Positions 41,079-64,000 of a stretch of DNA of 64,000 nt are shown here, piece by piece. Position numbers and translations under genes: made by a program. The notes under the pieces are model-generated. The model had not been told where the DNA came from and did no database searches. It saw only the letters and a list, made by a program, of their open reading frames with translations. How positions within the stretch are numbered: position 1 is the first letter of the stretch; each line of letters starts with the position of its first letter. Origin of the DNA: an uncultured bacterium (GTDB lineage Bacteria; Patescibacteriota; JACMRA01); contig OY969926.1 in the NCBI GenBank assembly GCA_963704645.1, positions 544,001 to 608,000 on the forward strand, in the 5' to 3' direction.

Positions 41079-44000
41079 ATGAACAAAGATAAATTAAACT
41101 TTTTAAAACACAATTGGCAGAAAAGTCTATCTCCATCAATTACTATCTTTCTAACAACATTAACCATCCTAACCCCAATACTCTCACTAACAACAAGTGC
41201 TAAAATTACTTTTAATAACTACGATGAAAGTAAAATTAAATATTCTAAAGATAGGCCTACTTCTAAATTCAAATCTAATGAGGCGGGTTTCGTCTCTACA
41301 TCAAATGCCTCTGGAGACCAGGGTGTCTCCGCTACACAGGAACAAACTCTCGAGACATCACCAACTCTTCCGCCTAACAAATTAACCATACAAGCCACAG
41401 GGTGTTATTACATTTCAAGAATAAGTAATGATGGTGCGGGGGGTAAGTTGTATTTAACGGGAATGAGCGAAGACGTCTCAGATAAACTAATTTCAGACAA
41501 TTACAATAACCTTACTACAAAACCAAACTTTATTCTTTTAGGAAACTTCCTTTCAGGCCAAGATCTAATTCTTAAAATAACTCCCTTCTACTCACAATCA
41601 CCTAAAACCATTCTTTCTACAGATTCCAGTAGAGTAAAACAAGTAAACTTAGGAAACAATAGCTATTCTCTTTCCTTTGAAGATTGGTTAGACTATGACT
41701 TTAATGATATTGTGCTTAAAGTAGAGAAGGGTATTTGTGAAGGTGAGGGCGAACCTGAGCCTCCAAGTAATCCAGAGCCACCTACTACGCCAACTCCTCA
41801 GCCAACAATTCCTCCAACTCAGCCAGAAACTCCGCTAACCCATCAAGAAAAACAAAAGAGACTGGAAGAATGGAAAAGACCAGAGCCTCAAACTCCTATT
41901 AGGCCTACAATACCTACACCTAAACCAGCACTTCCACAGGTTCCAGTAACTTCTCCAGTAATTATTGATACTCCTCAACCAGTAACTCAAACTCCAATAA
42001 TTCCGCCTTCTGAAGCCACTCAATCCTTAGTGACTAAAACTACACTTGCTCCAACCACTTCCCTTGCTACCACCACCCCCACAGTCCAACCCCTAGCCAT
42101 AACAGGAACTCCCTTATACAACGAATGTAACTACCCAGAACTTCCCTATGATAACTGGTGTGCTCAATATTACAACAACAATCCTTATTCTGGAATAATG
42201 TCTTATTCTGAAAACTATTATCCTGCTAGAGATTCTCTTGGAAGAACAGATTACATTAACAAAGATTGGGGTTATGGTAACCCTGGAGGAGTAACCCCCT
42301 CTGATTACTTCTCAGCTAAATTTAGTAAAAAACAATGGTTTGAATCAGGTCATTACAAATTCTATACAGGTTACGACGATGGAATGAAATTAGTTATTAA
42401 TGGAAACATTGTAATAGATAAATGGGAAAACCCAGCCGCAGATACTGACACCAGAATAGATCTACCAACAGGCTGGCACGTAATGGAAGTATACTATCAA
42501 GAAAAAACAGGAAGTGCTAAACTAACCCTTTCTTGGGAACTAGCATGTAAAACCAATAATAACTTCTCAGACTGGTGTGTAGAATTCTACCCTAACAAAT
42601 ATCAAACAGGAATACCTGTAAAACCAGTAACCAGACTAGGGGACTTTTGGGATGATAACTGGGGGAATAATAATCCTACTGTAAACTTAACTAAGGGAGG
42701 AATAAATTCTTTTTCAGGAACTTACCTAAACTCACCTTCAGGAATAAGCTCCCTTCCAACAGATAACTTTTCTGGTTACTTTACCAAAATGCATTATTTC
42801 CCGGCCTCCACATTCACTTTCATTTCAAAGGCTGATGACGGAACTGAAATTATATTAGACGGAACTAGGATAATTAATCAGCCTGGGTGTTGCTCTGAAA
42901 CCAGAACAGACAGATATCTTACTGAAGGTTGGTATCTTCTTCAAGTTAAGTTTAGGGAAGATGCTGGACAGGCCGCTTTTGCTTTGAGGTGGGAGTATAC
43001 AGACAGTATAAAACCTGATGGAAGAATAATAAACCCAAGTGCAAACTATCAAACAATTACAGGAAACAACTTTACAGTAAAAGCTGAGGCTTGGGATTTA
43101 TCTACACCACAAAGTCTTGTAAGCTATGTAGATTTCTACGCCTACTACGACAGTAAATTATTATTCCTTGGTAGAGAATACAACGACAATGTGGATTATC
43201 TTTATTCAGCCAACATTGATCTTACCAAAGTATCTAGCTCTCAGAATATTGAGTTTAGTATAAATATTACAGACAGAGCGGGCAATGTTAAGATTGGTGG
43301 GTGGGGTAGTGTTTGGGGGAGATTTAATAAGAATCTTTCGCAGGCAGAAAGTTTAATTAATGATGGGTTGTATAATTATTTAGCAAAGAGAGAGTGTACA
43401 GCATCGTGTGATACGGAAATTCAGTTTCATGCTAAAATGGTTTTAGCAATATGGACAGCAACGACAGGTCGAAACCCATCAACAACTTTTCTGTCCTGCC
43501 AAGATTTAAACTACCTACAATCTTTTCTAAATAATAAGAAAAACTCTAATTGGTATACTTCAGATGAGCCAAAAAGATTGTTTTTAAATGCTGTATTTGT
43601 TTTAAATGAAAGAACTTTAATGAATTCCTACTGTAAAAATACAATGGAAGCTTACGTAGCAAGTGCTAATTTTATTGCTCTATCTTGGCAAAGTACCAAT
43701 AACAAGGACAGATTTATTTACGATCTAGGAACAGTTTTTGCCAATAGACCCGGTAAAAATTGCATAATAAGTATAGATGGGTGTAATGCAGGTACAGTAT
43801 ATGAAGAAGCCTACCATATAGTGGAATTTCATGGCTCTTCTGGTTACAATTATATTTTTGATGATGAGGGGACTAAATCTAACCTTGCATGGCATAATAC
43901 TGGTGGAGGAATAAACTTTGCGTATGCAGGTGATAGCCAAAACTCGGTTGGTTATCCTTTTATTGGAGTAAACTTACCATTACCTTTATTTGGATCCAAT

Positions 44001-52310: not shown

Positions 52311-53600
52311 ATGTCTCGGCTTAAAATTTCAGACAGCACCTTAAAAAAACTGTTTGCTTTGTCAGGTAATTGCTGCGCTTTTCCAAATTGTACTCAAAAA
52401 CTTATTGATGATTCTGGTAATTTAATTGCTCAAATTTGCCATATTGAAGCGGCTAATGTTGAAGGTCAGCGATACAATCCTAATCAAAATGATGAAGAAA
52501 GAAGAGACTTTTCTAATTTGGTTATAATGTGCCCCAATCATCACAAAATTACAGATGATGTGGAAAAATATTCTACGCCACTTCTGCAAAAAATTAAAGC
52601 CGACCACGAGGCTAAGTTTAAGAACAAAAACCAGCAATTTGAACTTGAAAAAGAAGCTTTGCAAAAAATTTCTGAACAAGTAAATAACTTTAATTTTGAA
52701 AACAATTCTGGCCAGCAAAATTTAAATCAGGGTGGAACGCAAATTATTCAAAATGGTTTAACGGTTACAGAAACAAGACAAATAGTTTCAGACCAAATTT
52801 ACCCAGTAGTGGAAGAATTGAAGAAGAATTTTATTCACCTTTCTAAGGAATCTAAAAAAACTGTAGACGAAAGAATTCAAAGTTTTCTAGTTGATAATTT
52901 TACTCCAAAATTTATAGAACTTACAAGTCGTGTAAATAATTTGGAGGTCAGGTTAAAAAGCCCAGATGTTCAATATTCTTTCAATCAAGTTTTGCAAGCT
53001 GTTGGTCGAAGATCTTCTCCAAGTTTCAATCAAAGTTTAGCCAATTTAATGATAGCTAGAATTGAAAGCGAAGATAATTCCGCTGAAGCCTTAATTTACA
53101 ACGAAGCCATAGCAGTTTTCCCAAAGTTAACCAGTACTCAGCTTGGGATTTTGAGCCTTGCGTTTTTAACTCACTCAGTTGAATCAGGCGAGGATGTTAA
53201 GTCTGATGAACAAATTATAGAATTACTGGAATCTAGGTTCGGTTGGCTAGAAAATAATAATTTTGGCGTTCAGAAAATGAAGGAAATTGATTTCTCTCAT
53301 CTTGAGTACGCTGGAGCAGCTAATGTATCTACTCAACAATACAATTTTGATAGTGTAGTAACAAACTACAAATTTTTTGGAGAGTATTTAGGAGAAGATT
53401 TTGGCTTTAGTAGTACTTTGAAAATCAAAACTGATGTACAGCAAGAAATAAAATCTAAAATAGTTGCTTTCTATAATTTATATTCAAATAATCCTATTTC
53501 CACAGTTCGGCTAACTTCTGTGGGAACGGTTCTAGCAATTCACTGGTTAAAAATTATAGCTAACTTGGATTTTGAGACTGGTCTGTGGTTACAAATTTAA
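52311..53600 (+). CDS. HNH endonuclease fused to an LPO_1073/Vpar_1526-like domain
   Basis: LFALSGNCCAFPNC, CHIEA and NLVIMCPNHH; C-terminal SPDVQY...PKLT..QL..LSL.F. Confidence 0.75.
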   Translation: MSRLKISDSTLKKLFALSGNCCAFPNCTQKLIDDSGNLIAQICHIEAANVEGQRYNPNQNDEERRDFSNLVIMCPNHHKITDDVEKYSTPLLQKIKADHEAKFKNKNQQFELEKEALQKISEQVNNFNFENNSGQQNLNQGGTQIIQNGLTVTETRQIVSDQIYPVVEELKKNFIHLSKESKKTVDERIQSFLVDNFTPKFIELTSRVNNLEVRLKSPDVQYSFNQVLQAVGRRSSPSFNQSLANLMIARIESEDNSAEALIYNEAIAVFPKLTSTQLGILSLAFLTHSVESGEDVKSDEQIIELLESRFGWLENNNFGVQKMKEIDFSHLEYAGAANVSTQQYNFDSVVTNYKFFGEYLGEDFGFSSTLKIKTDVQQEIKSKIVAFYNLYSNNPISTVRLTSVGTVLAIHWLKIIANLDFETGLWLQI

Positions 53601-53697
53601 CTATTGCAACTAGTTTGACTTAACCAGCTTAAAGTGTACTTGCAAAAAGTGTTTTTATATGCTGAAATTGAAATTGTTCAAGCTACATAAAAAACAA

Positions 53698-53865
53698 ATG
53701 CTTAAAAAAATTGGATTAGGGTTGCTTTCAGCCGGTGTTTTGTGGGTTTTGCTAGACTTGGCTAACAAGTCCACTGGAGATACCCAGCTTTTGTATACCT
53801 GTCTATCAGGTATCCCAGTTTTTGTTATCGGTATATTAATCTACAAAAGAGATAACAGATGGTAA
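53698..53865 (+). CDS. small 2-TM protein
   Basis: 55 aa hydrophobic ORF with its own terminator. Confidence 0.55.
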   Translation: MLKKIGLGLLSAGVLWVLLDLANKSTGDTQLLYTCLSGIPVFVIGILIYKRDNRW

Positions 53866-53897
53866 TTATACCCTAAAGATCTAGATAAATGTTCAGT

Positions 53898-53920
53898 CCT
53901 GTGTTATTTACACAGGTTTT
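53898..53920 (+). terminator. intrinsic terminator
   Basis: CCTGTGT-TATTT-ACACAGG followed by TTTT. Confidence 0.8.
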
Positions 53921-53964
53921 ATTATTGCCCAAAATGTTTTTTAAAGTTCAGCTGCTATTAAAAT

Positions 53965-54125
53965 TTGACAAAGGTAATTTTTAGTGTTATAAATTATGTA
54001 TTAAAGTAAACTAAATTACTTTAAAAGTCATCCAGGTTTCTGGATCGTACTATCACATAGGAGGTATTAAATTACAAACAACTCTTTTATCCCGGCATTC
54101 TTTGAATTCACCGGGTCTTTTAATT
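53965..54125 (+). ncRNA. candidate sRNA or leader with its own promoter and terminator
   Basis: TTGACA-17-TATAAA with TG extension; hairpins at 54001-24 and 54030-45; terminator-like CCCGG...CCGGG TCTTTT. Confidence 0.4.
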
Positions 54126-54159
54126 GCCCAAAAACTAAAAAAATATTTTGCTACAATTA

Positions 54160-55566
54160 ATGTCTTTGAAGTTAGCTTTAGCTATAGAATCTAGTTGTGA
54201 TGAAACCAGTTTGGCTATATTTTTGTTGCCTGATAATGTTCCAACCAACTTTTTAGAAAGAATAAATTCGTACGTTGTTTTGGGTTCAATTGTTTCTTCT
54301 CAAATAAAAATTCACCAAGAATATGGTGGAGTTATTCCAGAAGTTGGCGCCCGAAGCCATGCCACCCAAATTCACTATTTATGGAATTTAGTTTGGCAAC
54401 AAGCCGTAGAAAAAGCCAGTGCTATTGGAATTAATAATTTGGAAAAAACTAATTTAGAAACTATTTTGGTAACTACAAACCCTGGTTTGGTTTCAGCTTT
54501 GCGGGTAGGGCTAGAGTTTGCAAAGTCTTTAAAGTTCTTTTTAGAATTACAAAATGCCAATGTAAATATAATTCCGGTTAACCATTTGCGTGGTCATGTA
54601 GCTAGCTGCTTTTACAATTTAGATGTTAAAACTTGGCTGCTTTCTTCTTCAGATGGACCTTCTAAAAATAACTTGGAGGGTGTTAAAAACGGGGAGAAGG
54701 TCGGGGTAAATAATACTGGCATTTCAGAGGGTTCAACTACCCCGATGAATTTGTCATCACCCCTTACCAGGGGTATTGGTGATGCTGAGTCTTTGAATGT
54801 TAGAGATGAAGATTTGTTTCCGCATTTGCATTTGTTGGTTTCTGGGGGGAATACACAGTTGTTGTTGCTTAAAAGTTGGAACGATTACGAAATTATTGGT
54901 CAAACTTTAGATGATGCAATTGGTGAAAGTTTAGATAAAATTGGACGAATGGTTGGTTTGCCTTATCCAGCTGGAATTAGTGTTTCTAAAATTGCTGGAT
55001 TAGTCTGCCAAAACCCGCTTAATTTAACTATAGGAATGAAGAATGCCGAGCTTAATTTTTCCTATTCAGGTATGAAAACAGCAGTACGTTATTTAGTTCA
55101 AAGTAAACCGGAATTACTTACATTCGAAGAAAATCTTTCCAAAGAAGATGTGGACTTTTTAATTTCTAGGGCGAATTTAGAGATTGGGGAAACTACTACC
55201 CCGAAACCTTCGGTTTCGCTCTTAGACAGGGGTACTTTATCCTCTGGGTCAATTAATTCGTCCGGATTAAATCTAGCCCAGCCCGAACTTGTTGTTGGGT
55301 CTAAACTTCATTTCATTCAGCAGCTTTGTATTTCTGCTCAGTACGTGGCTATTTCCCAAATTTCCCAAAAATTTAACTTGGCTATAAATTTGCATAGTCC
55401 AAAAAGTGTAGGTGTTTCCGGTGGAGTTTCAGCTAGTTTAATGCTTCGCCAAGAATTAAAAAACATAGCAAAAAAACACCAAATTTCTAACTTGTTTATT
55501 CCACAATTAAGTTTAACAGGCGACAACGCAGTTATGATTGGTCTTGCTGGTTTAGTATCTATTTAG
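54160..55566 (+). CDS. tsaD: tRNA t6A synthesis protein TsaD with two in-frame insertions
   Basis: AIESSCDETS, YGGVIPE, NHLRGH, LLVSGGNTQ, TLDDAIGE, FSYSG.KT and DNAVMIG. Confidence 0.95.
   Translation: MSLKLALAIESSCDETSLAIFLLPDNVPTNFLERINSYVVLGSIVSSQIKIHQEYGGVIPEVGARSHATQIHYLWNLVWQQAVEKASAIGINNLEKTNLETILVTTNPGLVSALRVGLEFAKSLKFFLELQNANVNIIPVNHLRGHVASCFYNLDVKTWLLSSSDGPSKNNLEGVKNGEKVGVNNTGISEGSTTPMNLSSPLTRGIGDAESLNVRDEDLFPHLHLLVSGGNTQLLLLKSWNDYEIIGQTLDDAIGESLDKIGRMVGLPYPAGISVSKIAGLVCQNPLNLTIGMKNAELNFSYSGMKTAVRYLVQSKPELLTFEENLSKEDVDFLISRANLEIGETTTPKPSVSLLDRGTLSSGSINSSGLNLAQPELVVGSKLHFIQQLCISAQYVAISQISQKFNLAINLHSPKSVGVSGGVSASLMLRQELKNIAKKHQISNLFIPQLSLTGDNAVMIGLAGLVSI
54736..54777 (+). repeat. 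42-bp coding double-hairpin element, copy 1
   Basis: ACTACCCC GATGAA TTT GTCATC A CCCCT TACC AGGGG TATT = TTPMNLSSPLTRGI. Confidence 0.85.
55195..55236 (+). repeat. 42-bp coding double-hairpin element, copy 2
   Basis: ACTACCCC GAAACC TTC GGTTTC G CTCTT AGAC AGGGG TACT = TTPKPSVSLLDRGT. Confidence 0.85.
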
Positions 55567-55606
55567 TCTGAGCACAAAAAAAGTAGCGTGTTGCTACTTG
55601 CTAGTT

Positions 55607-55912
55607 TTAATTAATCATTTCCTGATAATACTCTATAGGCATTGTTGGCAATCCAAAATCAATTCTCCTAGATAAAGAACTGGAAATTTGAAGAACAGCA
55701 ATGATAGTAATTTCCCCACTAGTAACTGTTACTACGTTATATTCTTGACCAGGCCAATTGTTGATTTGTTTCAGGTCATCACGGTGAACTAAGCCCAAAT
55801 TGTCTTTACTAACTAAACTTTTAACTGCGGGTGCATGATAATGTTTAGTCTGAACTTTAAACTGTCTTCTTATACTATTTCCTTCATCCAAGACAAAAAT
55901 TACTTGCTTCAT
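55607..55912 (-). CDS. hypothetical protein
   Basis: 101 aa ORF convergent with tsaD; shared hairpin at 55581-55599. Confidence 0.55.
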   Translation of the reverse strand: MKQVIFVLDEGNSIRRQFKVQTKHYHAPAVKSLVSKDNLGLVHRDDLKQINNWPGQEYNVVTVTSGEITIIAVLQISSSLSRRIDFGLPTMPIEYYQEMIN

Positions 55913-56058
55913 TAATGTTTTCCAAAACTAGTAATTCAGTAATAACAAAAGCCATTATCCTGTCAAAATAAATTTGATTTGCAATAAACCAAACAATTTG
56001 AATTACTAGAAATATACTTTCAAAAGCTGAAATAAGCAGCAAAACCAAACTACCTTCA

Positions 56059-57540
56059 ATGCCTAAAATTCCTTTCCGTACAAAACTATTAATTTGGCTT
56101 GGTGGTAAATTGCTAGAAAAAATTCGCAAAACTTATTATAAGAAATATAACAAAAAATGGCCTATTGTTTTAATTGCTGGAACTGCTGGTAAAAGTTCTA
56201 CTACATTGCTAATTCAAAACCTATTTACCAAGGCTGGCTGGCAAGTTTTCGGAAGTGCTACTAAAACTACCTGCCTCAATTCTTTAACTGGTTTAATTAT
56301 GGTTCTTGGAAGGTTTTTCTTCCAGTTTGAAGGCGGAATGGGTGGTTGGCGCAAGTTTGAATTTTTGGTAGAGGCAGCTTGGACTAGTTTTTTTGGCAAT
56401 TATTCAGATTTACAAGAAAACTCGGTTTTGGTTTTTGAGGTTGGTTTTAACGAACAACACGAAGCCAATTTCTTTACTAAAATTTTTGAAGATAAGGCCA
56501 GTTTTTTGGTTGTTACAAATTTAACTTTAGAACATTCCTTTGGTTTTTCAAACCGTTTAGACACGGCTACACTTTCTAAATTAGAAAACAATTTACCGCC
56601 AGAATTAGTTCAGCTTTTGTTAGACAGTGAAAAAAATAATGCCAGATTAGCCAACACTGCTCTAGAGCAACTGAAGTTAATTAACTGTGCTAAAAACATT
56701 ATGGTTCCAACAACTTTAGGCAGCATTACCAACTCTTGGTTTACTAAAATAGCTGGTAAAAATGAATGGGAAATGCAAAACTTTATTGCTACCAGAAATG
56801 AAAATAGGTTGGAAGTTAACGGCCAATATTTGTTTCCAGCTGAATATTTATTGCCTTTAACTTTTGCTAAAACGGTTGGAATTATTGAAGAAATTAAGCA
56901 ACAATTTAATTTGGAAGTTAATTTACAGGAAGTGCTAGATAGTTTTTCTTTCCCCAACGGAAGATTTAGTTTGCTAGCAGGAATTAACGACACAGTTTTG
57001 GTAGACAGCACTTACAATTCAGATCCGGCAAGTTTAGTAGGTTATTTAGATTTGTTTGAAGAAATTGTTAGTCTGCAAAAAACTACAACTCAACAACATT
57101 TAGTTTTACCAAAGCACAATTTAATTTTAGGCGAAATGAGGGAGATGGGAAAAATTGCTACAACTCAGCACAATTTAATTTTAGATAAAGTTTTAGAAAT
57201 TGGAGCTAAATTTCCAGATAGAATTGAATCTATTCGGCTCATTGGAAAAGAATGGCTGGCTTGCAACCAAGACGATATTGTAAAAGTGGATGGAGACGTT
57301 AGTTTTATTTCTTATTCCAAACATTTATTTAAAGTTTATAATTCAGCAGGTTCAATAATTAAATCTTTACCAGAAGTTACTATTTCACAAGGAAATTGGT
57401 ATTGGCTAAAAGGCAGCCAAAACACTATATTTTTAGAAGGCGTAGTAGAATATTTACTAGAGAATAAGGATGAGGTGGAAACAAAACTGTGCAGACGAGG
57501 CGCAGAGTGGGATCAGATTAGGGCGAAGTGGCTGGTGTAG
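56059..57540 (+). CDS. murF: Mur ligase, MurF-like
   Basis: IAGTAGKSST, DSTYNSDP, LGEMREMG and LKGSQN. Confidence 0.78.
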   Translation: MPKIPFRTKLLIWLGGKLLEKIRKTYYKKYNKKWPIVLIAGTAGKSSTTLLIQNLFTKAGWQVFGSATKTTCLNSLTGLIMVLGRFFFQFEGGMGGWRKFEFLVEAAWTSFFGNYSDLQENSVLVFEVGFNEQHEANFFTKIFEDKASFLVVTNLTLEHSFGFSNRLDTATLSKLENNLPPELVQLLLDSEKNNARLANTALEQLKLINCAKNIMVPTTLGSITNSWFTKIAGKNEWEMQNFIATRNENRLEVNGQYLFPAEYLLPLTFAKTVGIIEEIKQQFNLEVNLQEVLDSFSFPNGRFSLLAGINDTVLVDSTYNSDPASLVGYLDLFEEIVSLQKTTTQQHLVLPKHNLILGEMREMGKIATTQHNLILDKVLEIGAKFPDRIESIRLIGKEWLACNQDDIVKVDGDVSFISYSKHLFKVYNSAGSIIKSLPEVTISQGNWYWLKGSQNTIFLEGVVEYLLENKDEVETKLCRRGAEWDQIRAKWLV

Positions 57541-57587
57541 TGGGAGATAATTTTATCAGCTTTGAAATTAGAATTAGCACAAAATAA

Positions 57588-57608
57588 AACAGGCTTGCTG
57601 GGCCTGTT
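57588..57608. terminator. hairpin between convergent genes
   Basis: AACAGGC-TTGCTGG-GCCTGTT. Confidence 0.65.
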
Positions 57609-57617
57609 CGGTTTAGG

Positions 57618-58235
57618 TTAACGATTAATGTTAACCGTGTTTAAGTCTACAATGTCTCCAACTCCTTCCAGCTTGAAAATTGAGTTTTCATCAAGAGGAT
57701 TTATCCAACCGTTGTACCATTCTTCAGCATTGCCTAATACAAGCTCACTGATGCCGTTTGATCTACAGATATCGACTAGCTGCTGGTCGTAATCTTCTTG
57801 CATCATATGCAGTTGTGAATCATCAGCTTGTACAAAAAGTTTCAAACCAGCAATGAAATGTTCAATTCCATTCAATTCTTCAACATTACTGGGTGAATCA
57901 GTTTGTTGCTGATTACACTCTGTGTGCTGTTCAAAGTTTTGAAGAATCTGATCTTTAACAGGAGAAAGAGTTCTCAGATAAGCATTTTTATAGGCCTCGG
58001 GGTCTACATCTTGAAACCAAGTATTAGCATCGGCGACATAAACTTTTGATCCGTCTTTAACTAAAAAGCTGAAATCAGTTGATTTAGGAAGTATTTCTCC
58101 TTTAAGATTCCAGAAAGGGATTCCTGTTTTATCTCGAAATATAATAAGGAGCTGAAACAGATCATTATCAAATTTGGTTTCAATTACTCTCCACGCTGTG
58201 TTTAGACTGTTAATATAGTCAACTAAACTTGTCAC
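57618..58235 (-). CDS. hypothetical protein
   Basis: 205 aa ORF with GTG start. Confidence 0.6.
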   Translation of the reverse strand: MTSLVDYINSLNTAWRVIETKFDNDLFQLLIIFRDKTGIPFWNLKGEILPKSTDFSFLVKDGSKVYVADANTWFQDVDPEAYKNAYLRTLSPVKDQILQNFEQHTECNQQQTDSPSNVEELNGIEHFIAGLKLFVQADDSQLHMMQEDYDQQLVDICRSNGISELVLGNAEEWYNGWINPLDENSIFKLEGVGDIVDLNTVNINR

Positions 58236-58660
58236 AGTTTTTACTCCACAATAGTTTTTACTTCAAGCTTTTAAGTATTTTCATAAATAATTTGCATAGT
58301 CAACCAATCTTAAAACTAGTATTTAGATAGATTCTAGCCGTTAAATTTTTGTTTTTTAAGTTAAACCCCGAAACAAGTTCAAGGTAGCGGGTTTAGAGAA
58401 ATAAATGTACCAACTAATAGAGATAATTTATTGGGTTTTGAACATATTTATCCTTATTAAAGCTATCTTAAACTTATCCCTTGACAAAAAAATGTTTTTG
58501 TAATTACTAGTTTGTCAAGCTGTGGATTTGTGCTAAGGCAGTGCTGTAAAAAACAATAACTTCATCATCTTATGGCATCTTTAGTTCTATCTAATTAATA
58601 TTTTATTAATCTCATAATTTTTTAATTTATCAGCTTCAATCTTTTATTGTCGCAAACATC

Positions 58661-58682
58661 AGGGTGGCTTCGGCCACTCTTT
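58661..58682 (+). terminator. hairpin upstream of the TPR gene
   Basis: AGGGTGGC-TTCG-GCCACTCT TT. Confidence 0.6.
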
Positions 58683-58727
58683 GACATGGGCAATTTTCTG
58701 TGCTATTTAAGCTGAAATTATATTTTT

Positions 58728-60182
58728 GTGACAATTAATCCTACCAACAAACAATACGGTTCTGTGCCAAGTAAAATTAGACCTAGCTTAAGGTTAGATA
58801 GCACTATTGACCCTAGGCAAATTTCCAAATATCTAGATTTGTTAAAGCCTATTAAACTTCAATCTGATAAGGAAAAACAGATTATTAATTGGTATTATTC
58901 TGAAGAAATTCAATTACCCTTAAAAGAAGCTTTGATGGTAATTGTAGGTAAGTTACAATTGTTTTTAGACTCTGCTGAAACCAAGCTTAAAAAGTCTGTT
59001 GAATTGGGTGATACTGTTTTGGCAGACTGTATTAAGCAGCTGCACATCACGGTTAATAATCATAATTTTGAAGATATAGACAAAGTAAGAGATAGAATTT
59101 TGAAAAGGTTAAAAGATGATGATTACAAAAGTGAAATATATAATTTTACTGGCGAAATTTACCGTAACATTGGTATTTTAAGTAAAAGTATTTCCAACTT
59201 TAAAAAATCTTTGGAATACAACCCAGCTAACTTTAACGCCGTTCTAAATTTGGGCAGACTTTATATAAGCACAGAAGATTATCAGCTAGTTGAAGATTTA
59301 ATTATTGATGCTGTTAAGTTGTTTAAAAAGAAAACTCCAGAATATTTGCCCGAATTATTAAATTTGTTGAGCCAGTCAAAAATATATTCATCTAAATATT
59401 TAGAGGCCAAGCAAATTTTGTTACAAGCTAAAAGTTTTCCTACTAACAACCCAGATTTAAAAAAGTTAATTGATATAAATTTAATTTTGGTTTTAGTGCT
59501 AAATTTTGAATTAACAGAAGCTTGGGAAATGATTGAACATGTTGGATTATCTATTTCCGGCAGTTTCAACCCTCATCATCCCGAGCCTTTGCAATTCAGC
59601 CAAATTCCCTTTTTGTATAACACAATTGCTATATATTACGCTGTAGATAATCAGTTTCAAAAGTCTAAAGCTTTCGCCGAAAAATCTTTTCAAATAGATG
59701 AAATGCTGGGTAACACTAAATACAATTTGCCGTATCATTTTCTAGTAATAAATAACAATTTGGCCTATTTAAGTATTTATCTAGGTGATTCCGAGGGCTT
59801 TAATAAATATAATCAATTAGTCCGAGAGCTTTCCATAGACTTCTTCGGCTCAAATTCTTTTGCTTTTGCTAAAAGTTATGCTAATTTGGGTTTAATGTAT
59901 TTAATTCAAGGTAAAAAAGATGAAGCTTTTCAGCAATTTTTTAGGTCGTTCCAGCTATTGTCACAAACCAGTCAGCGTAGCCAGTTAATAAGATCTGCTA
60001 TTTATTGCGACATTGGAAATATTTATTGTTGGCAGAAAAACTATGATCAGGCTAAAATTTTCTATTCTAAGGCTAAATTAATTGTTCAAGAATATTTTGG
60101 AAAAAACAGTTTGAACTTGCAAAGAATTAATGCAAAAATTAAGACTTTAGAAAGTGGTGTAAATATTATTTTACCTTTCTAA
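58728..60182 (+). CDS. tetratricopeptide repeat protein
   Basis: Repeats such as YNFTGEIY..FKKSLEYNP, YANLGLMY and YCDIGNIY. Confidence 0.82.
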   Translation: MTINPTNKQYGSVPSKIRPSLRLDSTIDPRQISKYLDLLKPIKLQSDKEKQIINWYYSEEIQLPLKEALMVIVGKLQLFLDSAETKLKKSVELGDTVLADCIKQLHITVNNHNFEDIDKVRDRILKRLKDDDYKSEIYNFTGEIYRNIGILSKSISNFKKSLEYNPANFNAVLNLGRLYISTEDYQLVEDLIIDAVKLFKKKTPEYLPELLNLLSQSKIYSSKYLEAKQILLQAKSFPTNNPDLKKLIDINLILVLVLNFELTEAWEMIEHVGLSISGSFNPHHPEPLQFSQIPFLYNTIAIYYAVDNQFQKSKAFAEKSFQIDEMLGNTKYNLPYHFLVINNNLAYLSIYLGDSEGFNKYNQLVRELSIDFFGSNSFAFAKSYANLGLMYLIQGKKDEAFQQFFRSFQLLSQTSQRSQLIRSAIYCDIGNIYCWQKNYDQAKIFYSKAKLIVQEYFGKNSLNLQRINAKIKTLESGVNIILPF

Positions 60183-60190
60183 GTTTTGTT

Positions 60191-61405
60191 ATGCGTTTAG
60201 TTTTTTTTGGTTCGTCCAGTTTTGTAATTCCAATTTTGGAAGATATTAAGAACGGTGAGGGTGCTAGCTTATTACAAGTTTTAACTTCTAGGAGAGAAGA
60301 GTTAGGCAAAATTGACCCTTCATATTCAGATATAGTAAAGCAAGTTGAGTCTCTGGCGAATGAAGAAAATCTAGAATTAAGCGATATTAAAGACAAGCTA
60401 AATTCGCCTATAGAATTATTGGGTGTTGTTACCCAAGCAAACACAGAACATAGAGGAAAAATTCAGAAATCCGGTACTGCAATATGGAGTGAGAATAATA
60501 ATGTAAAGTTATTTCAACCTGAAAAATTAAATAAGCAATTTGAAGAATGGCAGACTTTTGTGGAAGAAGGTTTTGATGTTTCTGTTGTGGCTTCTTTTGG
60601 CCAAATAATCAGTCAAAAAGTTTTAGATACAGGGCAGTGGATAAACTGGCACCCTTCCAAGCTACCAGAATACAGAGGTCCTTGCCCCATGCAGCAATGC
60701 CTGGCAGATGGCAGGGTCGAAACAGCCTTAAGTTGGATTAAAATGACGAAAGGTATGGACGCTGGAGAAATTTATGTGCAAGTTCCTGTAAAAACAAATG
60801 GTTCAGATTTTAACCAATTAGCTGAAAGAATGGGTGATTTAGGTAAATTAACTTGGCCTTTGGCTGTTCTTGCTAGTATAATTAATAATACTGAAAATCA
60901 AAGTTCAAATTCAATTTTAAATAGTTTAAAAGCTTTGCTTCAACCAAAAATTCAAAACGAAGACGAAGTTACTTTTACTAAAATGTTAACCAAAGAAGAT
61001 GGAGTAGTTATTCCCAATTCGCAATCGGCCGAGCAAATTTACAACCATTATTTGGCCTATATCCAATATCCAAAAACATATTATTTTAGTAGTTATTTTA
61101 ATGAAATGGTTAGACTGGATGAAGTTGAAGGTTGGGTTCATGGTGGAACTGAAACTAGCCCGACTACCCCGATGGCTTTGCCATCACCCCTAGATAGGGG
61201 TACTCTTAGCCTAGAACTAGAGGTAGTTAATAGTCTTTCTTCAAACTCTACTTCGCAATCCCATCCTCAAAGTTCTGAGTTTCGCAAGATAGATAATAAA
61301 ACTAATTATTTGCTTTTACAATGTGCCAAGCAAACTTTTTTAAAAGTAATTTCCGTAACTTTAAGTAGTGGTAAAAAGGTGTTTTTAAAAGGTTTGGAAT
61401 TATAG
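60191..61405 (+). CDS. fmt: methionyl-tRNA formyltransferase with insertions
   Basis: MRLVFFGS, VVASFGQII, INWHPSKLPEYRGPCP and MDAGEI. Confidence 0.9.
   Translation: MRLVFFGSSSFVIPILEDIKNGEGASLLQVLTSRREELGKIDPSYSDIVKQVESLANEENLELSDIKDKLNSPIELLGVVTQANTEHRGKIQKSGTAIWSENNNVKLFQPEKLNKQFEEWQTFVEEGFDVSVVASFGQIISQKVLDTGQWINWHPSKLPEYRGPCPMQQCLADGRVETALSWIKMTKGMDAGEIYVQVPVKTNGSDFNQLAERMGDLGKLTWPLAVLASIINNTENQSSNSILNSLKALLQPKIQNEDEVTFTKMLTKEDGVVIPNSQSAEQIYNHYLAYIQYPKTYYFSSYFNEMVRLDEVEGWVHGGTETSPTTPMALPSPLDRGTLSLELEVVNSLSSNSTSQSHPQSSEFRKIDNKTNYLLLQCAKQTFLKVISVTLSSGKKVFLKGLEL
61163..61204 (+). repeat. 42-bp coding double-hairpin element, copy 3
   Basis: ACTACCCC GATGGC TTT GCCATC A CCCCT AGAT AGGGG TACT = TTPMALPSPLDRGT. 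Confidence 0.9.
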
Positions 61406-61434
61406 TTGCAAAGAACGGTACACTGTGCTAGAAT
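61406..61434 (+). promoter_or_regulatory. sigma70 promoter
   Basis: TTGCAA-17-TAGAAT with TG extension. Confidence 0.65.
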
Positions 61435-61450
61435 TGTACTTATTACATAT

Positions 61451-64000
61451 ATGCTTAGCGATTTATACCTTAAGGCCGTCCAAGTTAGCAGTTCTAGCGA
61501 AAATACCCCTGAATTGGCTAATTATTGGCAGTCTAGATACACTAACTTGCTAGAAAAAGATTTATTTAGGGTTAGTTCTAAAACTATAGATCTGGTAAAA
61601 CTAGACGAATTAACAAGACCTGCCACCACATTTGGAGAGCTTGTTTTGGTTAATCATTTAGATAAGAATGGCCAATTAGACGAAGCAGCTTTGCAAACTA
61701 GTATTGAAACTGCAGTGCGTTTTCTAGATGGTTTTTTGGATACATTAAATTTTAATAGTCAGGCCAAAGCCACGGTTGCCACTTACAGAAAAATTGGTCT
61801 TGGAATTGCCGATTTTAAAGAATATTTAAGCAAAAGAAGTAACTCTTCCGAGCTAGATGAAACAGACTATTTAGGAAATTTAATTAGTTCTGCAACTTAC
61901 AGAGCAAGTGAAAGTTTAGCCGAGGAAAAAGGTGTTTGTCATGGTTGGGATAAGGTTAGAAAACATTTACGTCCAAAATCTTTTGAATATTGGTATGACA
62001 TCGAAACCGGAGATGTTAAAAATGGTTTGGAAATGAGTGAAGATTTTTCTGAAGATACAATAATGGCCAGTAGGTACGAAATTGTTCCAAGAAGAAATGT
62101 TAGTTTGTTATTATTTCCACCAGATTTAGAATGGCAAATTTGGAGTGACCGTGATGATACAGCTGCTAAAACTGAAATGGTAAATGTGCCTGAAATTATT
62201 GATAACAAAAATAATCAAAACAGTAATTTGGTTCAGAAAAGTGATTTGAATCAAAACTTAATTCAAAATGAAATTGTTGAGGAAGTAGTTGTTCAACCTG
62301 ACTTAAATTCTGAGGATATCTCTACTTCTACTTCACAAGAAACTGATGAGCTAGAAACACAAGTTGAAATTATTAAGGAAGATCCAATTGCTTCAAACAT
62401 TAGTACAATAGATACTGAACTGTTGCAATTTGGTAACGAACCAGCACACTTTGAAGAGCCAAACCCAGCTTTAACTGAAATGAAAATTCAAGAACGCTTA
62501 GACGCAGTGGAAGATGCTAAGGTTGTAGAATTGCCTGCTTCTTCAGAAAACTTCTTAAAACCAAGTCTAAGTAACTCAGATAGTTCGCCTTTAAATAATG
62601 AACCTCAAACATTGAAAGATGTAAGTGAAGTTAGTGAAATTAAGGAAGATGATGAATCTTTAAAGTTGTTGACAGATGAAGTTGAACCTTTAATTAAGTC
62701 AGATACTAAGCCATTGCTAAACAATACTGCTAAACTAATGTTGGAAGACGAGCCAGAATTATTATTGGAATCTGATTCGAAGTTATTGCTTGAAGATGAA
62801 AAAGAATTATTATTGCAAGATAATGTTGAACCTTTGCTAACCAACACTCCCGGTATTCTTTTAGACGAAAGCAATGATTTAGATGAAAATAAGGAAAATG
62901 TTGAAGAAGAATTAGAAGTTGATAAATTAACAAATATAAGTTATATAGCTCCTGTAAACTTAGATCATTTAAGTAATTTGGATAATCAGGTTGATAGCGA
63001 AGTTGAAGAAGAGTATTCCAAAGAATCTTTTTCTTTTCAAATTGGCGAGTTAGTTCAACTTCCTAAAGAGAAAAATAAAATATACCAAGTTTTAGATGCA
63101 AAAAATGAGGCAGGAATAAACAAGTATCAATTAACCAATGGAAGTGCGGATGCCGTAGATGTTTATATTGCTGAAGATGAAATTGAGCCAGTAGAACTAT
63201 TCGATATTTTAGACCGAATTAATTTGGCTAGTAGTTTAGAAACAAAGTTGAGCGAACAAGATTTATTACTAAACCAATCTTCATCTTTAAACAAAGGCTG
63301 GGAGGTATGGGCATCGGCTTTAATATTAAACAATGGCAAGGCAGCTGTTTCTAAAGACTCGCAAAATTTTCCTTCAGTTCAGGTTGAAACCGATCAACTT
63401 CCAGAAAAGAAATTAATTGCTTATTTGGAAGATCAATATCAATTACACGGACGTATTATTGAGGAGGTAGGCAGCTCTACAACCCAACTTGATGGTGTTT
63501 CTAGACTACATTTAACATATCAAGTACAAGTAAAAGAGAGTGTTTTACCCGCTAGTTTGGTAGAAGTTCAAATTGCAAGTCTGCAAGAGTCTGAAAGTTC
63601 AGCGAGAACAATTTTAAACAAATATAATAGAAGGCAATTATATTGGCAGAATCAAATAGATAAAGCCAAGAAAAGCGCCCAAGTTATTCCAAACGTTGTA
63701 AATTCTAAAGCTGATAACACTAGTAATTTAAGCGCTTCTAACATAAACCCAACTATATCAGTTGAACCAACACCATCAAACATTCATTTTAACACCCCAA
63801 CAATTCAAATTAACCCTAACAATATGGCTAAATATTCCCTTAAACTAGAACAATTAGTACAAACCCAAGCTTTTGGCGATGTAACAGTAACAATTCAATA
63901 TGATCCTGAAGGTCCTAAAGTAGTTATGGCTACAGGACAAGCAGTTGTAGGTGAATTAAAACACCTACTAGACACTGTTTTAGGTTTAGTAAACTTCACT
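61451..64000 (+). CDS. degenerate ribonucleotide-reductase-derived multidomain protein (3' partial, not in track)
   Basis: 850 stop-free codons by manual translation; AVRFLD, RKIGLG, YRASESLAEEKG and RRN. Confidence 0.8.
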   Translation, partial: MLSDLYLKAVQVSSSSENTPELANYWQSRYTNLLEKDLFRVSSKTIDLVKLDELTRPATTFGELVLVNHLDKNGQLDEAALQTSIETAVRFLDGFLDTLNFNSQAKATVATYRKIGLGIADFKEYLSKRSNSSELDETDYLGNLISSATYRASESLAEEKGVCHGWDKVRKHLRPKSFEYWYDIETGDVKNGLEMSEDFSEDTIMASRYEIVPRRNVSLLLFPPDLEWQIWSDRDDTAAKTEMVNVPEIIDNKNNQNSNLVQKSDLNQNLIQNEIVEEVVVQPDLNSEDISTSTSQETDELETQVEIIKEDPIASNISTIDTELLQFGNEPAHFEEPNPALTEMKIQERLDAVEDAKVVELPASSENFLKPSLSNSDSSPLNNEPQTLKDVSEVSEIKEDDESLKLLTDEVEPLIKSDTKPLLNNTAKLMLEDEPELLLESDSKLLLEDEKELLLQDNVEPLLTNTPGILLDESNDLDENKENVEEELEVDKLTNISYIAPVNLDHLSNLDNQVDSEVEEEYSKESFSFQIGELVQLPKEKNKIYQVLDAKNEAGINKYQLTNGSADAVDVYIAEDEIEPVELFDILDRINLASSLETKLSEQDLLLNQSSSLNKGWEVWASALILNNGKAAVSKDSQNFPSVQVETDQLPEKKLIAYLEDQYQLHGRIIEEVGSSTTQLDGVSRLHLTYQVQVKESVLPASLVEVQIASLQESESSARTILNKYNRRQLYWQNQIDKAKKSAQVIPNVVNSKADNTSNLSASNINPTISVEPTPSNIHFNTPTIQINPNNMAKYSLKLEQLVQTQAFGDVTVTIQYDPEGPKVVMATGQAVVGELKHLLDTVLGLVNFT

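Follow-up and report, generated by a model that had tools for sequence, protein, structure and literature searches.

What is a small double hairpin doing, in frame, twice in tsaD and once in fmt of an uncultured patescibacterium? The question is raised by a stretch of 64,000 nucleotides, called the window below, which covers positions 544001–608000 of contig C1 of genome G000; the genome is a single contig of 1,272,640 bases, with 33% GC and an estimated completeness of 87%. A preliminary description, made from the letters of the window, had seen in these units a mobile palindrome family that targets translation genes, perhaps what is left behind by an endonuclease-carrying element or the site that it recognizes, or else a structural switch in mRNA. 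We find that related units bracket DUF559 nuclease domains in other genomes, free-standing or within the reading frames of host genes. The unit is probably the end module of a mobile family of DUF559 cassettes. The G000 copies are then best read as nuclease-less derivatives, solo ends or pairs of ends, because G000 has no DUF559, Y1, TnpB, or DDE_3 domain.

Results

The repeat family

The unit consists of a 5′ box (aACTACCCC-S), a variable 6-bp stem with a loop of 3–4 nt (stem 1), an A, the palindrome CCCCT-N4-AGGGG (stem 2), and TACT, giving two hairpins in 42–46 nt. The first search for the family, with a regular expression, found 21 copies in G000, and these form alignment A1. A covariance model of the unit, R1, was used on G000, on its relatives, and on the DUF559 loci described below. 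With R1, there are 33 matches in G000 at E up to 1; 28 of these lie at E ≤ 1.6e-7 and one more at E = 0.0026, and these 29 are counted as copies. In six of the 29, loop 2 is longer by 48 bases, which makes a variant of 94 nt; these six follow the stop codons of large paralogous genes by 166–229 nt, and in these genes the last kilobase or so is repeated. Over 43 columns, 2 of the 210 pairs of G000 copies are identical and 8 more differ at 2 columns, with a median of 9 differences.

The preliminary description had noted compensatory changes in stem 1 and had argued that structure rather than peptide is conserved, and for stem 1 both points are confirmed. Four of the six pairs are changed on both sides among the 21 G000 copies, and all six are in an alignment of 37 units from 11 genomes. 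The 21 copies have 95.5% of cells paired, compared with 83.5% in shuffles (0/500 as high), and a covariation score of 0.351, compared with 0.122 in shuffles (0/500 as high) and at most 0.10 once the pairing partners are shifted. The peptide encoded by stem 1 varies with the stem (KPLV, MALP, IAMQ, MNLS). Stem 2 has no two-sided change in either alignment and is conserved in sequence. CTAC (GTAG on the other strand) is found at one end in 20 of the 21 copies; the box of other genera is ATCCCCC, ATACCCC, or CCACCCC. The predicted RNA folds alternate between the two-hairpin form and a pairing of the 5′ TACCCC with the 3′ GGGGTA, an alternative that had also been proposed from the window, and the fold z-scores are modest (−1.0 to −3.1). 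A search of the region 53000–64000 against Rfam gave only a chance snoRNA match, E = 0.28, and the unit has no Rfam family.

When 40 relatives were surveyed with R1 at E up to 0.001, nine showed matches: the congener G001 (37), G023 (24), G016 (11), G012 (7), G021 (4), G024 (4), G025 (3), G009 (1), and G022 (1). The positive genomes are 8 of the 24 in the family and the single genome of a second family of the order, with 0 of 15 in other families of the phylum.

Association with DUF559

Which enzyme could move such a unit? In domain searches, G000 has no Y1_Tnp (PF01797), TnpB-type TNB domain, IS630-type DDE_3, or DUF559, and G001 has no Y1_Tnp. The Y1 genes of the relatives are IS200-like and have no adjoining module, with a best R1 score of 9.6 bits over four Y1 loci. 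The co-occurrence of Y1 with the module is weak (7/9 relatives compared with 13/31, p = 0.064). Since PF01797 is absent in G000 and G001 and the Y1 genes of the relatives are not flanked by modules, Y1/RAYT was rejected as the enzyme for the genus.

What first led to DUF559 was a doublet in G001, located where a DUF559 frame begins. DUF559 is present in 9/9 relatives with R1 matches and in 7/31 without (Fisher p = 4e-5 by genome and 0.0013 by genus, values that overstate the association, as related genomes are not independent). At 12 of 20 DUF559 loci, R1 run without filters has a match at E ≤ 0.05 no more than 300 nt away. Upstream, the nearest module is antisense, at −36 to −84 nt, often with a sense copy before it; downstream, the nearest is sense, at +5 to +117 nt. 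In 11 DUF559 loci (32.1 kb), all 16 R1 matches at E up to 1 lie inside a 924-nt span around the domain (chance value 1e-8), and 13 R1 matches have 13.8 bits or more. For comparison, a control set of 25 tsaD/fmt loci (88.9 kb) was taken from relatives without a strong R1 match, leaving out the loci of the R1-positive G001, G012, G016, and G025 and those of phylum-level relatives; its highest score was 11.9 bits, with none of 13 bits or more. All three R1 matches of G025 flank its single DUF559 gene. The units that flank DUF559 have the same architecture (C-rich box, variable hairpin, CCCCT-loop-AGGGG), with boxes and stems specific to the genus. Thus, of the two kinds of gene that had been named as possible partners of the unit, DUF559 is bracketed in relatives and Y1 is not.

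The DUF559 domains match PF04480 with E from 1e-22 to 1e-33, and the motif DF...E.D...H is kept in 17/17 of them, whether free-standing or inserted. The domain of G025 matches PDB 3HRL, an ‘endonuclease-like protein’, with E = 1.2e-12. The label Vsr-like, as used here for DUF559, comes from the source name ‘very-short-patch-repair endonuclease’ and from the available text of PMC9403480.

One locus of the congener (L060, G001:C11:19334-23627) has modules between small gene units, namely, a PIN-like and AbrB-like pair, a 256-aa membrane-like open reading frame (ORF), and DUF559. It adjoins a class II aminoacyl-tRNA synthetase (aaRS) gene that is ThrRS-like by eye, and its layout recalls repeat-bounded cassettes.

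In-frame DUF559 cassettes

In the relatives, a cassette is a DUF559 frame between two inverted modules, with the CCCCT..AGGGG palindromes outermost and the CTAC box inward. Many DUF559 matches lie within open frames of 750–1240 aa. The hosts with DUF559 in frame are cofactor-independent phosphoglycerate mutase (iPGM) in G016 (1138 aa, with two DUF559 domains) and in G023 (with one), LeuRS in G022, CysRS in G009, ThrRS in G014, and a class I aaRS of the Val/Ile type in G023. Furthermore, a type ISP restriction enzyme of G012 has DUF559 near its C terminus (residues 886–990 of 1045), and a type I specificity subunit of G017 has it at residues 374–478 of 755. Module variants are found on both sides of the in-frame DUF559 in every case, read antisense upstream and sense downstream, and the cassette ends, which belong to inserts of 187–237 aa, are read in the same frames as solo copies.

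Comparison of filled and empty sites defines the ends. In the iPGM gene of G016, the inserted DNA starts and stops exactly at the outer ends of the modules, where the palindromes are, and G023 is empty there. The second iPGM cassette is common to G016 and G023, and G000 is empty at that site. An orthologous site in the class I aaRS gene is seen in three states: empty in G000, with a solo sense module in G001, and with a full cassette in G023, and the right end of the G023 cassette aligns with the solo module of G001. No consistent target-site duplication was found; AAT would fit at one site, and a 10-bp direct repeat flanks one insert.

In three cassettes, no Hint domain was found at E up to 1, and the only Pfam families at E up to 0.1 were DUF559 and REase_MTES_1575. 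The junction residues are not intein-like either, so that no intein was found. Nor was a group I or group II intron found: eight loci gave no Rfam match at E up to 0.01, and the frames are open across both junctions.

A search of longer proteins, word-limited and with 591 candidates, found at least nine relatives; two are tRNA synthetases with an embedded DUF559, and the rest are helicase or restriction-enzyme fusions. One of the proteins, P0003, is a 1297-aa IleRS labelled Bacteroidota, with DUF559 embedded between …TPEGG… and …APFGGLGA… peptides. These peptides look like two readings of a different GC-rich palindrome, and a second such pair stands elsewhere in the protein without a nuclease. 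The apparent palindrome around the DUF559 of P0003 hints at a design wider than this group. Two of the frames with DUF559 have further foreign domains in frame: the aaRS frame of L181 (G023:C31) at residues ~928–1052 and the CysRS frame of L185 (G009:C77) at residues ~390–755. One of these is an alpha/beta (serine) hydrolase, and the other comprises domains of the P-loop kinase/uridine kinase-like kind.

The units in tsaD and fmt

The three units of the window (Table 1) are where the preliminary description had placed them and are read as it said, all sense and in one common frame, ACT ACC CCG. The peptides are STTPMNLSSPLTRGIG (copy 1), TTTPKPSVSLLDRGTL (copy 2), and PTTPMALPSPLDRGTL (copy 3). 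Copy 1 has a mismatch at the loop-closing pair of stem 1. In the alignment of the G000 copies, the pairing of stem 2 in copy 2 is held by two G-U pairs, as had been noted. The weak antisense half-module in fmt and copy 3 have the central CCCCT-AGAT-AGGGG palindrome in common, so that the fmt element is a symmetric unit of ~67 nt with the ends ACTACC and GGTAGT. A pattern made of the 5′ box and stem 2 has 4 matches, compared with 0.38 expected, and 0/100 shuffles reach 4. The fourth match, at 42066, is ruled out as a member of the family because R1 has no match there. R1 matches only copies 1–3 between genome positions 544001 and 608000, so that the window has no intergenic copy, in agreement with the first reading.

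Table 1. Host genes, inserts, and hairpin modules, with positions numbered from the first letter of the window; support for the inserts is from alignments and the predicted local distance difference test (pLDDT).
Feature	Position	Strand	Description	Support
tsaD	54148..55566	+	Host gene, 472 aa	Pfam TsaD, E 2.4e-57
tsaD insert 1	54619..54801	+	Residues ~158–218, genus-specific, holds copy 1	18-sequence alignment; pLDDT
Copy 1	54734..54779	+	Hairpin module in tsaD, sense, in frame	R1 58.3 bits, E 1.3e-12
tsaD insert 2	55180..55299	+	Residues ~345–384, genus-specific, holds copy 2	18-sequence alignment; pLDDT
Copy 2	55193..55238	+	Hairpin module in tsaD, sense, in frame	R1 58.9 bits, E 9.2e-13
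fmt	60191..61405	+	Host gene, 404 aa	Pfam Formyl_trans_N, E 3e-16
fmt insert	61133..61267	+	Residues ~315–359, holds copy 3	Alignment of 12 Fmt sequences
Copy 3	61161..61206	+	Hairpin module in fmt, sense, in frame	R1 63.5 bits, E 8.2e-14
Second half-module in fmt	61181..61229	−	Weak, antisense	R1 20.0 bits, E 8e-4

Each copy lies in a longer segment that is absent from canonical TsaD or Fmt, as the preliminary description had proposed. Among the 18 TsaD sequences, inserts 1 and 2 are found only in G000 and its congener G001; the tsaD of G001 has three copies, two of them as a tandem within insert 1. Among the 12 Fmt sequences, a 36-residue insert is found only in G000 and is absent from G001 and 10 other relatives; its site is a length-variable linker before the C-terminal domain. 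Most orthologues are without these segments, which are lineage-specific. An AlphaFold2 model of TsaD (predicted template modelling score, pTM, 0.74) has pLDDT <50 only at residues 1–4, 160–215, and 347–377. Since the last two stretches coincide with the inserts, these are the only internal low-confidence parts of the model, and both are predicted to be disordered. With filters off, R1 picked up no decayed module elsewhere in the tsaD inserts and, as its only extra match, the weak antisense half copy in fmt; a likeness upstream of copy 1, noted by eye, is given no weight.

In another genus, the tsaD of G016 (L029) has a hairpin unit of a related kind elsewhere in the gene (…ATPSLSALPLQGGE…) and a decayed hairpin unit in the loop equivalent to insert 1 of G000; both were seen by eye, without an R1 match. 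Upstream of tsaD, at window positions 52311–53600 (+), is a 429-aa ORF with an N-terminal Cys/His pattern that is HNH-like by eye and with no Pfam family at E up to 0.001. The ORF after fmt (window positions 61406–64000, running to genome position 608363, 985 aa) has a partial ribonucleotide reductase barrel at residues 76–196, E = 1.9e-10, followed by hundreds of acidic, low-complexity residues.

Positions and reading frames in G000

Gene proxies for the genome were ORFs of at least 110 aa rather than the output of a gene caller; 997 ORFs make up 85% of the genome. By this measure, 19 copies are intergenic, 8 are well inside genes (5 sense and 3 antisense), and 2 are at the first residues of the ORF proxies of nusA and ybaB, where they may be in 5′ leaders rather than in genes. 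The family is thus mainly intergenic and strongly depleted in coding DNA, given that 85% of the genome is coding. Of the 19 intergenic copies, 15 follow a stop codon on the same strand by at most 229 nt; 6 of these 15 are the long variant and not independent. Inverted doublets occur in G000, at 382086/382147, and in G001.

All eight copies well inside genes are open in frame. By Pfam, the sense hosts include TsaD, with two copies, and Fmt, with one, and family A DNA polymerase (polA) also has one. In a class I aaRS of 842 aa, one copy is sense and one is antisense, and another begins right at the stop codon. Antisense copies are also found in an FAD oxidoreductase-like protein of 1347 aa and in an RsmE-like RNA methyltransferase. 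Hosts in the relatives include a class V aminotransferase, RNase HII, and iPGM. The hosts are thus not confined to translation genes, and the earlier idea that the family targets such genes finds no support in that form, with 19/29 copies intergenic, 2 more at ORF starts, and polA, the oxidoreductase, the aminotransferase, RNase HII, and iPGM among the hosts. The aaRS genes do recur as hosts, in small numbers and as a class picked post hoc.

The module is free of stops in one sense frame (TTPxPxxSPLxRGT) and one antisense frame (VPLxRGExxGFG). Stem-1 variants that begin with C (CAAGCC..GGCTTG-A and CAGAGC..GCTCTG-A) have TGA in the frame used by the sense coding copies, and the loop variants TAGATA and TAAATA have stops in the other two sense frames. 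The frame ACT ACC CCG is used by 5/5 sense coding copies of G000 and 6/6 of G001, all with G-type stems. Four sites that are open in all three sense frames still use it, with a simple chance value of 0.012 from small numbers. Of the antisense coding copies, two of three read VPLVRGE..., and the third is in another frame. The preliminary description had held that copies mainly intergenic and without bias of frame or gene class would be an ordinary palindromic repeat; the copies are mainly intergenic, and the sense coding copies share one frame.

At L015 (G000:1113655-1115157), two identical inverted modules, at 1113955 and 1114820, have their CTAC ends inward, as in cassettes, around 827 bp. 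This 827-bp stretch has an 85-aa frame as its only ORF and no Rfam family. L015 may be an emptied or replaced cassette.

The long variant accompanies a family of large genes, 560–1950 aa, with a near-identical last kilobase or so, at G000 genome positions 476182–480739, 484487–487268, 633938–638176, 798461–803162, 849968–851975, 971768–977032, 1036318–1038385, and 1125298–1131403; a Pfam search of one member gave no match. The module, mostly as the 94-nt variant, stands at a fixed distance behind each large gene and is itself followed by a conserved block, TTTACTCTAATTGT. Another short motif, GCTTCGCCGCTAC, is just upstream of several modules, at L072:900-1160 (G001) and at G000 806880, 811600, and 99830; in G001 it makes up the 10-bp direct repeat on either side of a 108-nt insert.

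Turnover between congeners

The DNA of G000 and G001 is ~70–85% identical. G001 has an extra sense copy in the aaRS gene, where G000 has a clean 51-nt gap. A doublet and the 108-nt insert of G001, the latter between 10-bp direct repeats, correspond to empty sites in G000. The palindrome family therefore varies in presence and absence between congeners, coding genes included, and empty sites can be defined by aligning orthologues (the fmt copy missing in G001 and the aaRS gap in G000 are examples), a check that the preliminary description had proposed. Where orthologous copies are present in both, whole stems may differ: GAAACC/GGTTTC in G000 compared with GATGAC/GTCATC in G001 at the N-terminal aaRS site, and GATTGC/GCAATC compared with GAAACC/GGTTTC in polA. 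Identical stem variants also recur at unrelated sites. Because of these whole-stem swaps, the recurring variants, and the near-identical pairs, the pattern looks like copying between sites, by re-insertion or gene conversion, and not like slow compensatory change.

Discussion

The results establish the family, its covariation, its positions, frames, and presence or absence at orthologous sites, the bracketing of DUF559, and the series of empty, solo, and full states at one site. What is the unit, then? In the explanation that we favor as probable, the complete form of the element would be a DUF559 (Vsr-like, PD-(D/E)xK) endonuclease frame bracketed by inverted modules. A cassette or a solo module that landed in a surface loop of an essential gene could be translated through and retained without splicing, because there are no stops in one of the sense frames of the module and in one of its antisense frames. 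The frame bias would follow because the cassette ends are built for translation in those frames. The copies of G000 in tsaD, fmt, polA, the aaRS gene, and other genes would persist as disordered loop insertions, and those in tsaD and fmt would survive because they keep the frame open, contain no stop, and fall in disordered loops. Intergenic copies would mostly lie just behind genes, like repetitive extragenic palindromic (REP) sequences. We infer that DUF559 recognizes the conserved palindrome and mobilizes the modules, and it may drive their spread by homing, gene conversion, or transposition. The Vsr-like homing endonucleases described in the available text of PMC3239194 are a precedent for such spread, and that of PMC9403480 places a DUF559 gene in their lineage. 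Since G000 now has no DUF559 gene, its copies are probably no longer mobile in this way. The early suggestion of a scar or recognition site of an endonuclease element, with DUF559 as a candidate, is thus supported by the relatives, through the bracketing and the three-state aaRS site, and not by G000, which lacks DUF559.

A wider proposal is tentative, and we regard it as possible rather than probable. It is that DUF559 is the nuclease of an undescribed mobile element with translatable two-hairpin inverted ends, which would invade essential genes such as those of tRNA synthetases and iPGM in frame, stay there as an unspliced inserted domain, and shed solo ends as protein loops (TsaD, Fmt) and as REP-like hairpins.

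Several observations weigh against the favored explanation and the role of DUF559 as its enzyme. G000 has no DUF559, yet it has 29 copies, some near-identical and with stems swapped relative to G001, which points to spread or homogenization in a lineage now without the nuclease. Eight of the 20 DUF559 loci have no R1 match at E at most 0.05 within 300 nt; six (L181, L182, L184, L185, L187, and L194) have none up to E = 1, and the flanking variants in L181, L184, and L185 were recognized by eye only. In G009, G021, and G022, the strong R1 matches are on other contigs than the DUF559 genes. No DUF559 cassette was found in tsaD or fmt among the 30 and 20 relatives searched, respectively, and the extra residues around the solo tsaD copies are not recognizably derived from the module in the R1 search with filters off. 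The overstated Fisher values belong here as well. Moreover, the association is equally explained if DUF559 cassettes prefer existing hairpins as landing sites.

This last point leads to a somewhat unlikely alternative, in which the unit is an ordinary selfish palindrome of the REP/REPIN or MITE (miniature inverted-repeat transposable element) type, its transposase lost or unrecognized (for example, Y1/RAYT), and DUF559 is a passenger that inserts in or next to palindromes. The conserved CTAC/GTAG end (20/21 copies in G000), the covarying stems, the inverted doublets, and the 15/19 intergenic copies close behind a same-strand gene are all traits of such repeats; in the available text of PMC3733652, the GTAG/CGTC REPs have the same traits and also occur in frame within polA and genes for tRNA synthetases. 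There are insertion sequences for which REPs are targets (PMC12288879, available text), and the G000 copies persist and look recently homogenized without DUF559. No enzyme of the expected kind accompanies them, however, as G000 has neither Y1_Tnp nor TnpB-type nor DDE_3 domains, G001 has no Y1_Tnp, and in the relatives the Y1 genes are IS200-like, not flanked by modules at any of the four loci scored (9.6 bits at best), and weakly co-occurring (p = 0.064). Furthermore, where a filled site can be compared with an empty one, the inserted DUF559 DNA ends exactly with the module on either side.

The other two explanations give the unit a function in the host. It is improbable that the unit is a host RNA element, whether a terminator, a 3′ stabilizer, or an mRNA structural switch as first suggested, that multiplied through duplication and is maintained because of what it does, also in the mRNA of tsaD and fmt. 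Sense copies within 229 nt behind a stop (15/19 of the intergenic ones), many of them followed by CTTT(T), would suit such a role, and so would the G-U pairs in stem 2 of copy 2, the two alternative predicted folds (the one observation that bears on the mRNA switch), and the pairing kept in orthologous coding copies of differing sequence. Yet 6 of the 15 belong to the long variant, which has travelled with the duplicated 3′ ends of paralogues, three coding copies are antisense, and congeners gain and lose copies inside essential genes. The fold z-scores are weak, there is no Rfam family, and a terminator within tsaD, twice, would be harmful; stem variants that recur at unrelated sites fit copying between sites better than stepwise compensation. 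We give very little credence to selection of the peptide TTPxPxxSPLxRGT as a linker or short motif with the hairpins incidental to it. All sense coding copies do share one frame, and the peptide, with its many Pro, Ser, Thr, and Gly residues, is found where disordered loops are predicted, but 19/29 copies are intergenic and 3 coding copies are antisense, the two-sided changes in stem 1 alter the peptide, and orthologues without the segment are the rule. The reading of the unit as the end module of DUF559 cassettes accordingly remains the one we prefer.

To our knowledge, DUF559 is a large family without an assigned function. If the wider proposal is true, it would give DUF559 a function, name an enzyme for REP-like repeats without RAYT, and explain part of the expansion of protein length in these lineages. 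In-frame palindromic repeats are known from Rickettsia and from some REP families, and for those without a RAYT, DUF559 is a concrete candidate for the enzyme that moves them. A question that follows is how iPGM and four kinds of tRNA synthetase still work when they carry a whole nuclease domain with no intein or intron. For annotation, the insertions would account for housekeeping proteins of excessive length and for odd loops of low complexity in these genomes.

Comparison with known systems

In the literature outside subscription journals, none of the matches listed links Patescibacteria or the candidate phyla radiation (CPR) with REP or MITE sequences, or DUF559 with palindromic repeats. 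The closest likeness is to the REP/REPIN-RAYT systems. The GTAG/CGTC REPs, in the available text of Di Nocera et al. 2013 (PMC3733652), have covarying stems, doublets, a position 3′ of genes, stops that come from the tag, and copies that lie in frame in polA and in genes for tRNA synthetases. Our unit is likewise a short GC-rich palindrome with a covarying stem (42–46 nt, compared with 20–40 bp for REPs in the same source). It has a GTAG/CTAC tag at one end in G000, with other boxes in other genera, forms inverted doublets, lies mostly 3′ of genes, and shares the layout of the REPtron, in which the mobilizing gene is between inverted copies. It differs in that G000 and G001 have no RAYT/Y1 and the Y1 genes of the relatives are not flanked. 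The module brackets a Vsr-like DUF559 nuclease and not an HUH tyrosine transposase, the unit has a second, sequence-conserved hairpin, and the bracketed DUF559 gene is itself in frame within host genes.

The Rickettsia palindromic elements (RPEs) are set apart by description, at about 100–150 bp (near 150 bp in PMC10969869) compared with 42–46 nt. We know of no enzyme for them, whereas in the relatives of G000 the unit is physically tied to a nuclease gene. The two are alike, according to the available text of PMC10969869, as in-frame palindromes in unrelated housekeeping genes that add surface peptides in a reduced genome.

The available text of Taylor et al. 2011 (PMC3239194) and of PMC2677866 describes Vsr-like nucleases that act as homing endonucleases in group I introns, inteins, and the ‘fractured genes’ of split inteins, and that of PMC9403480 assigns one DUF559 gene to the EDxHD family. 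The cassettes resemble the Vsr-like (EDxHD) homing endonuclease genes of PMC3239194 in having a nuclease of the Vsr fold at conserved sites of essential genes, and the aaRS site is occupied in different genera, with empty alleles. They differ in having no intron (Rfam, 8 loci) or Hint domain (3 cassettes), in being open on both sides and seemingly translated through, and in their hairpin inverted-repeat ends.

With MITEs, the units have in common that they are short, have terminal inverted repeats from a longer enzyme-coding element, and outnumber that element. In contrast to MITEs, the parent is not of a known transposase family, many units are single ends and not pairs, and a consistent target-site duplication is not seen. 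In-frame palindromes are thus a known phenomenon, and the link to DUF559 is the new part.

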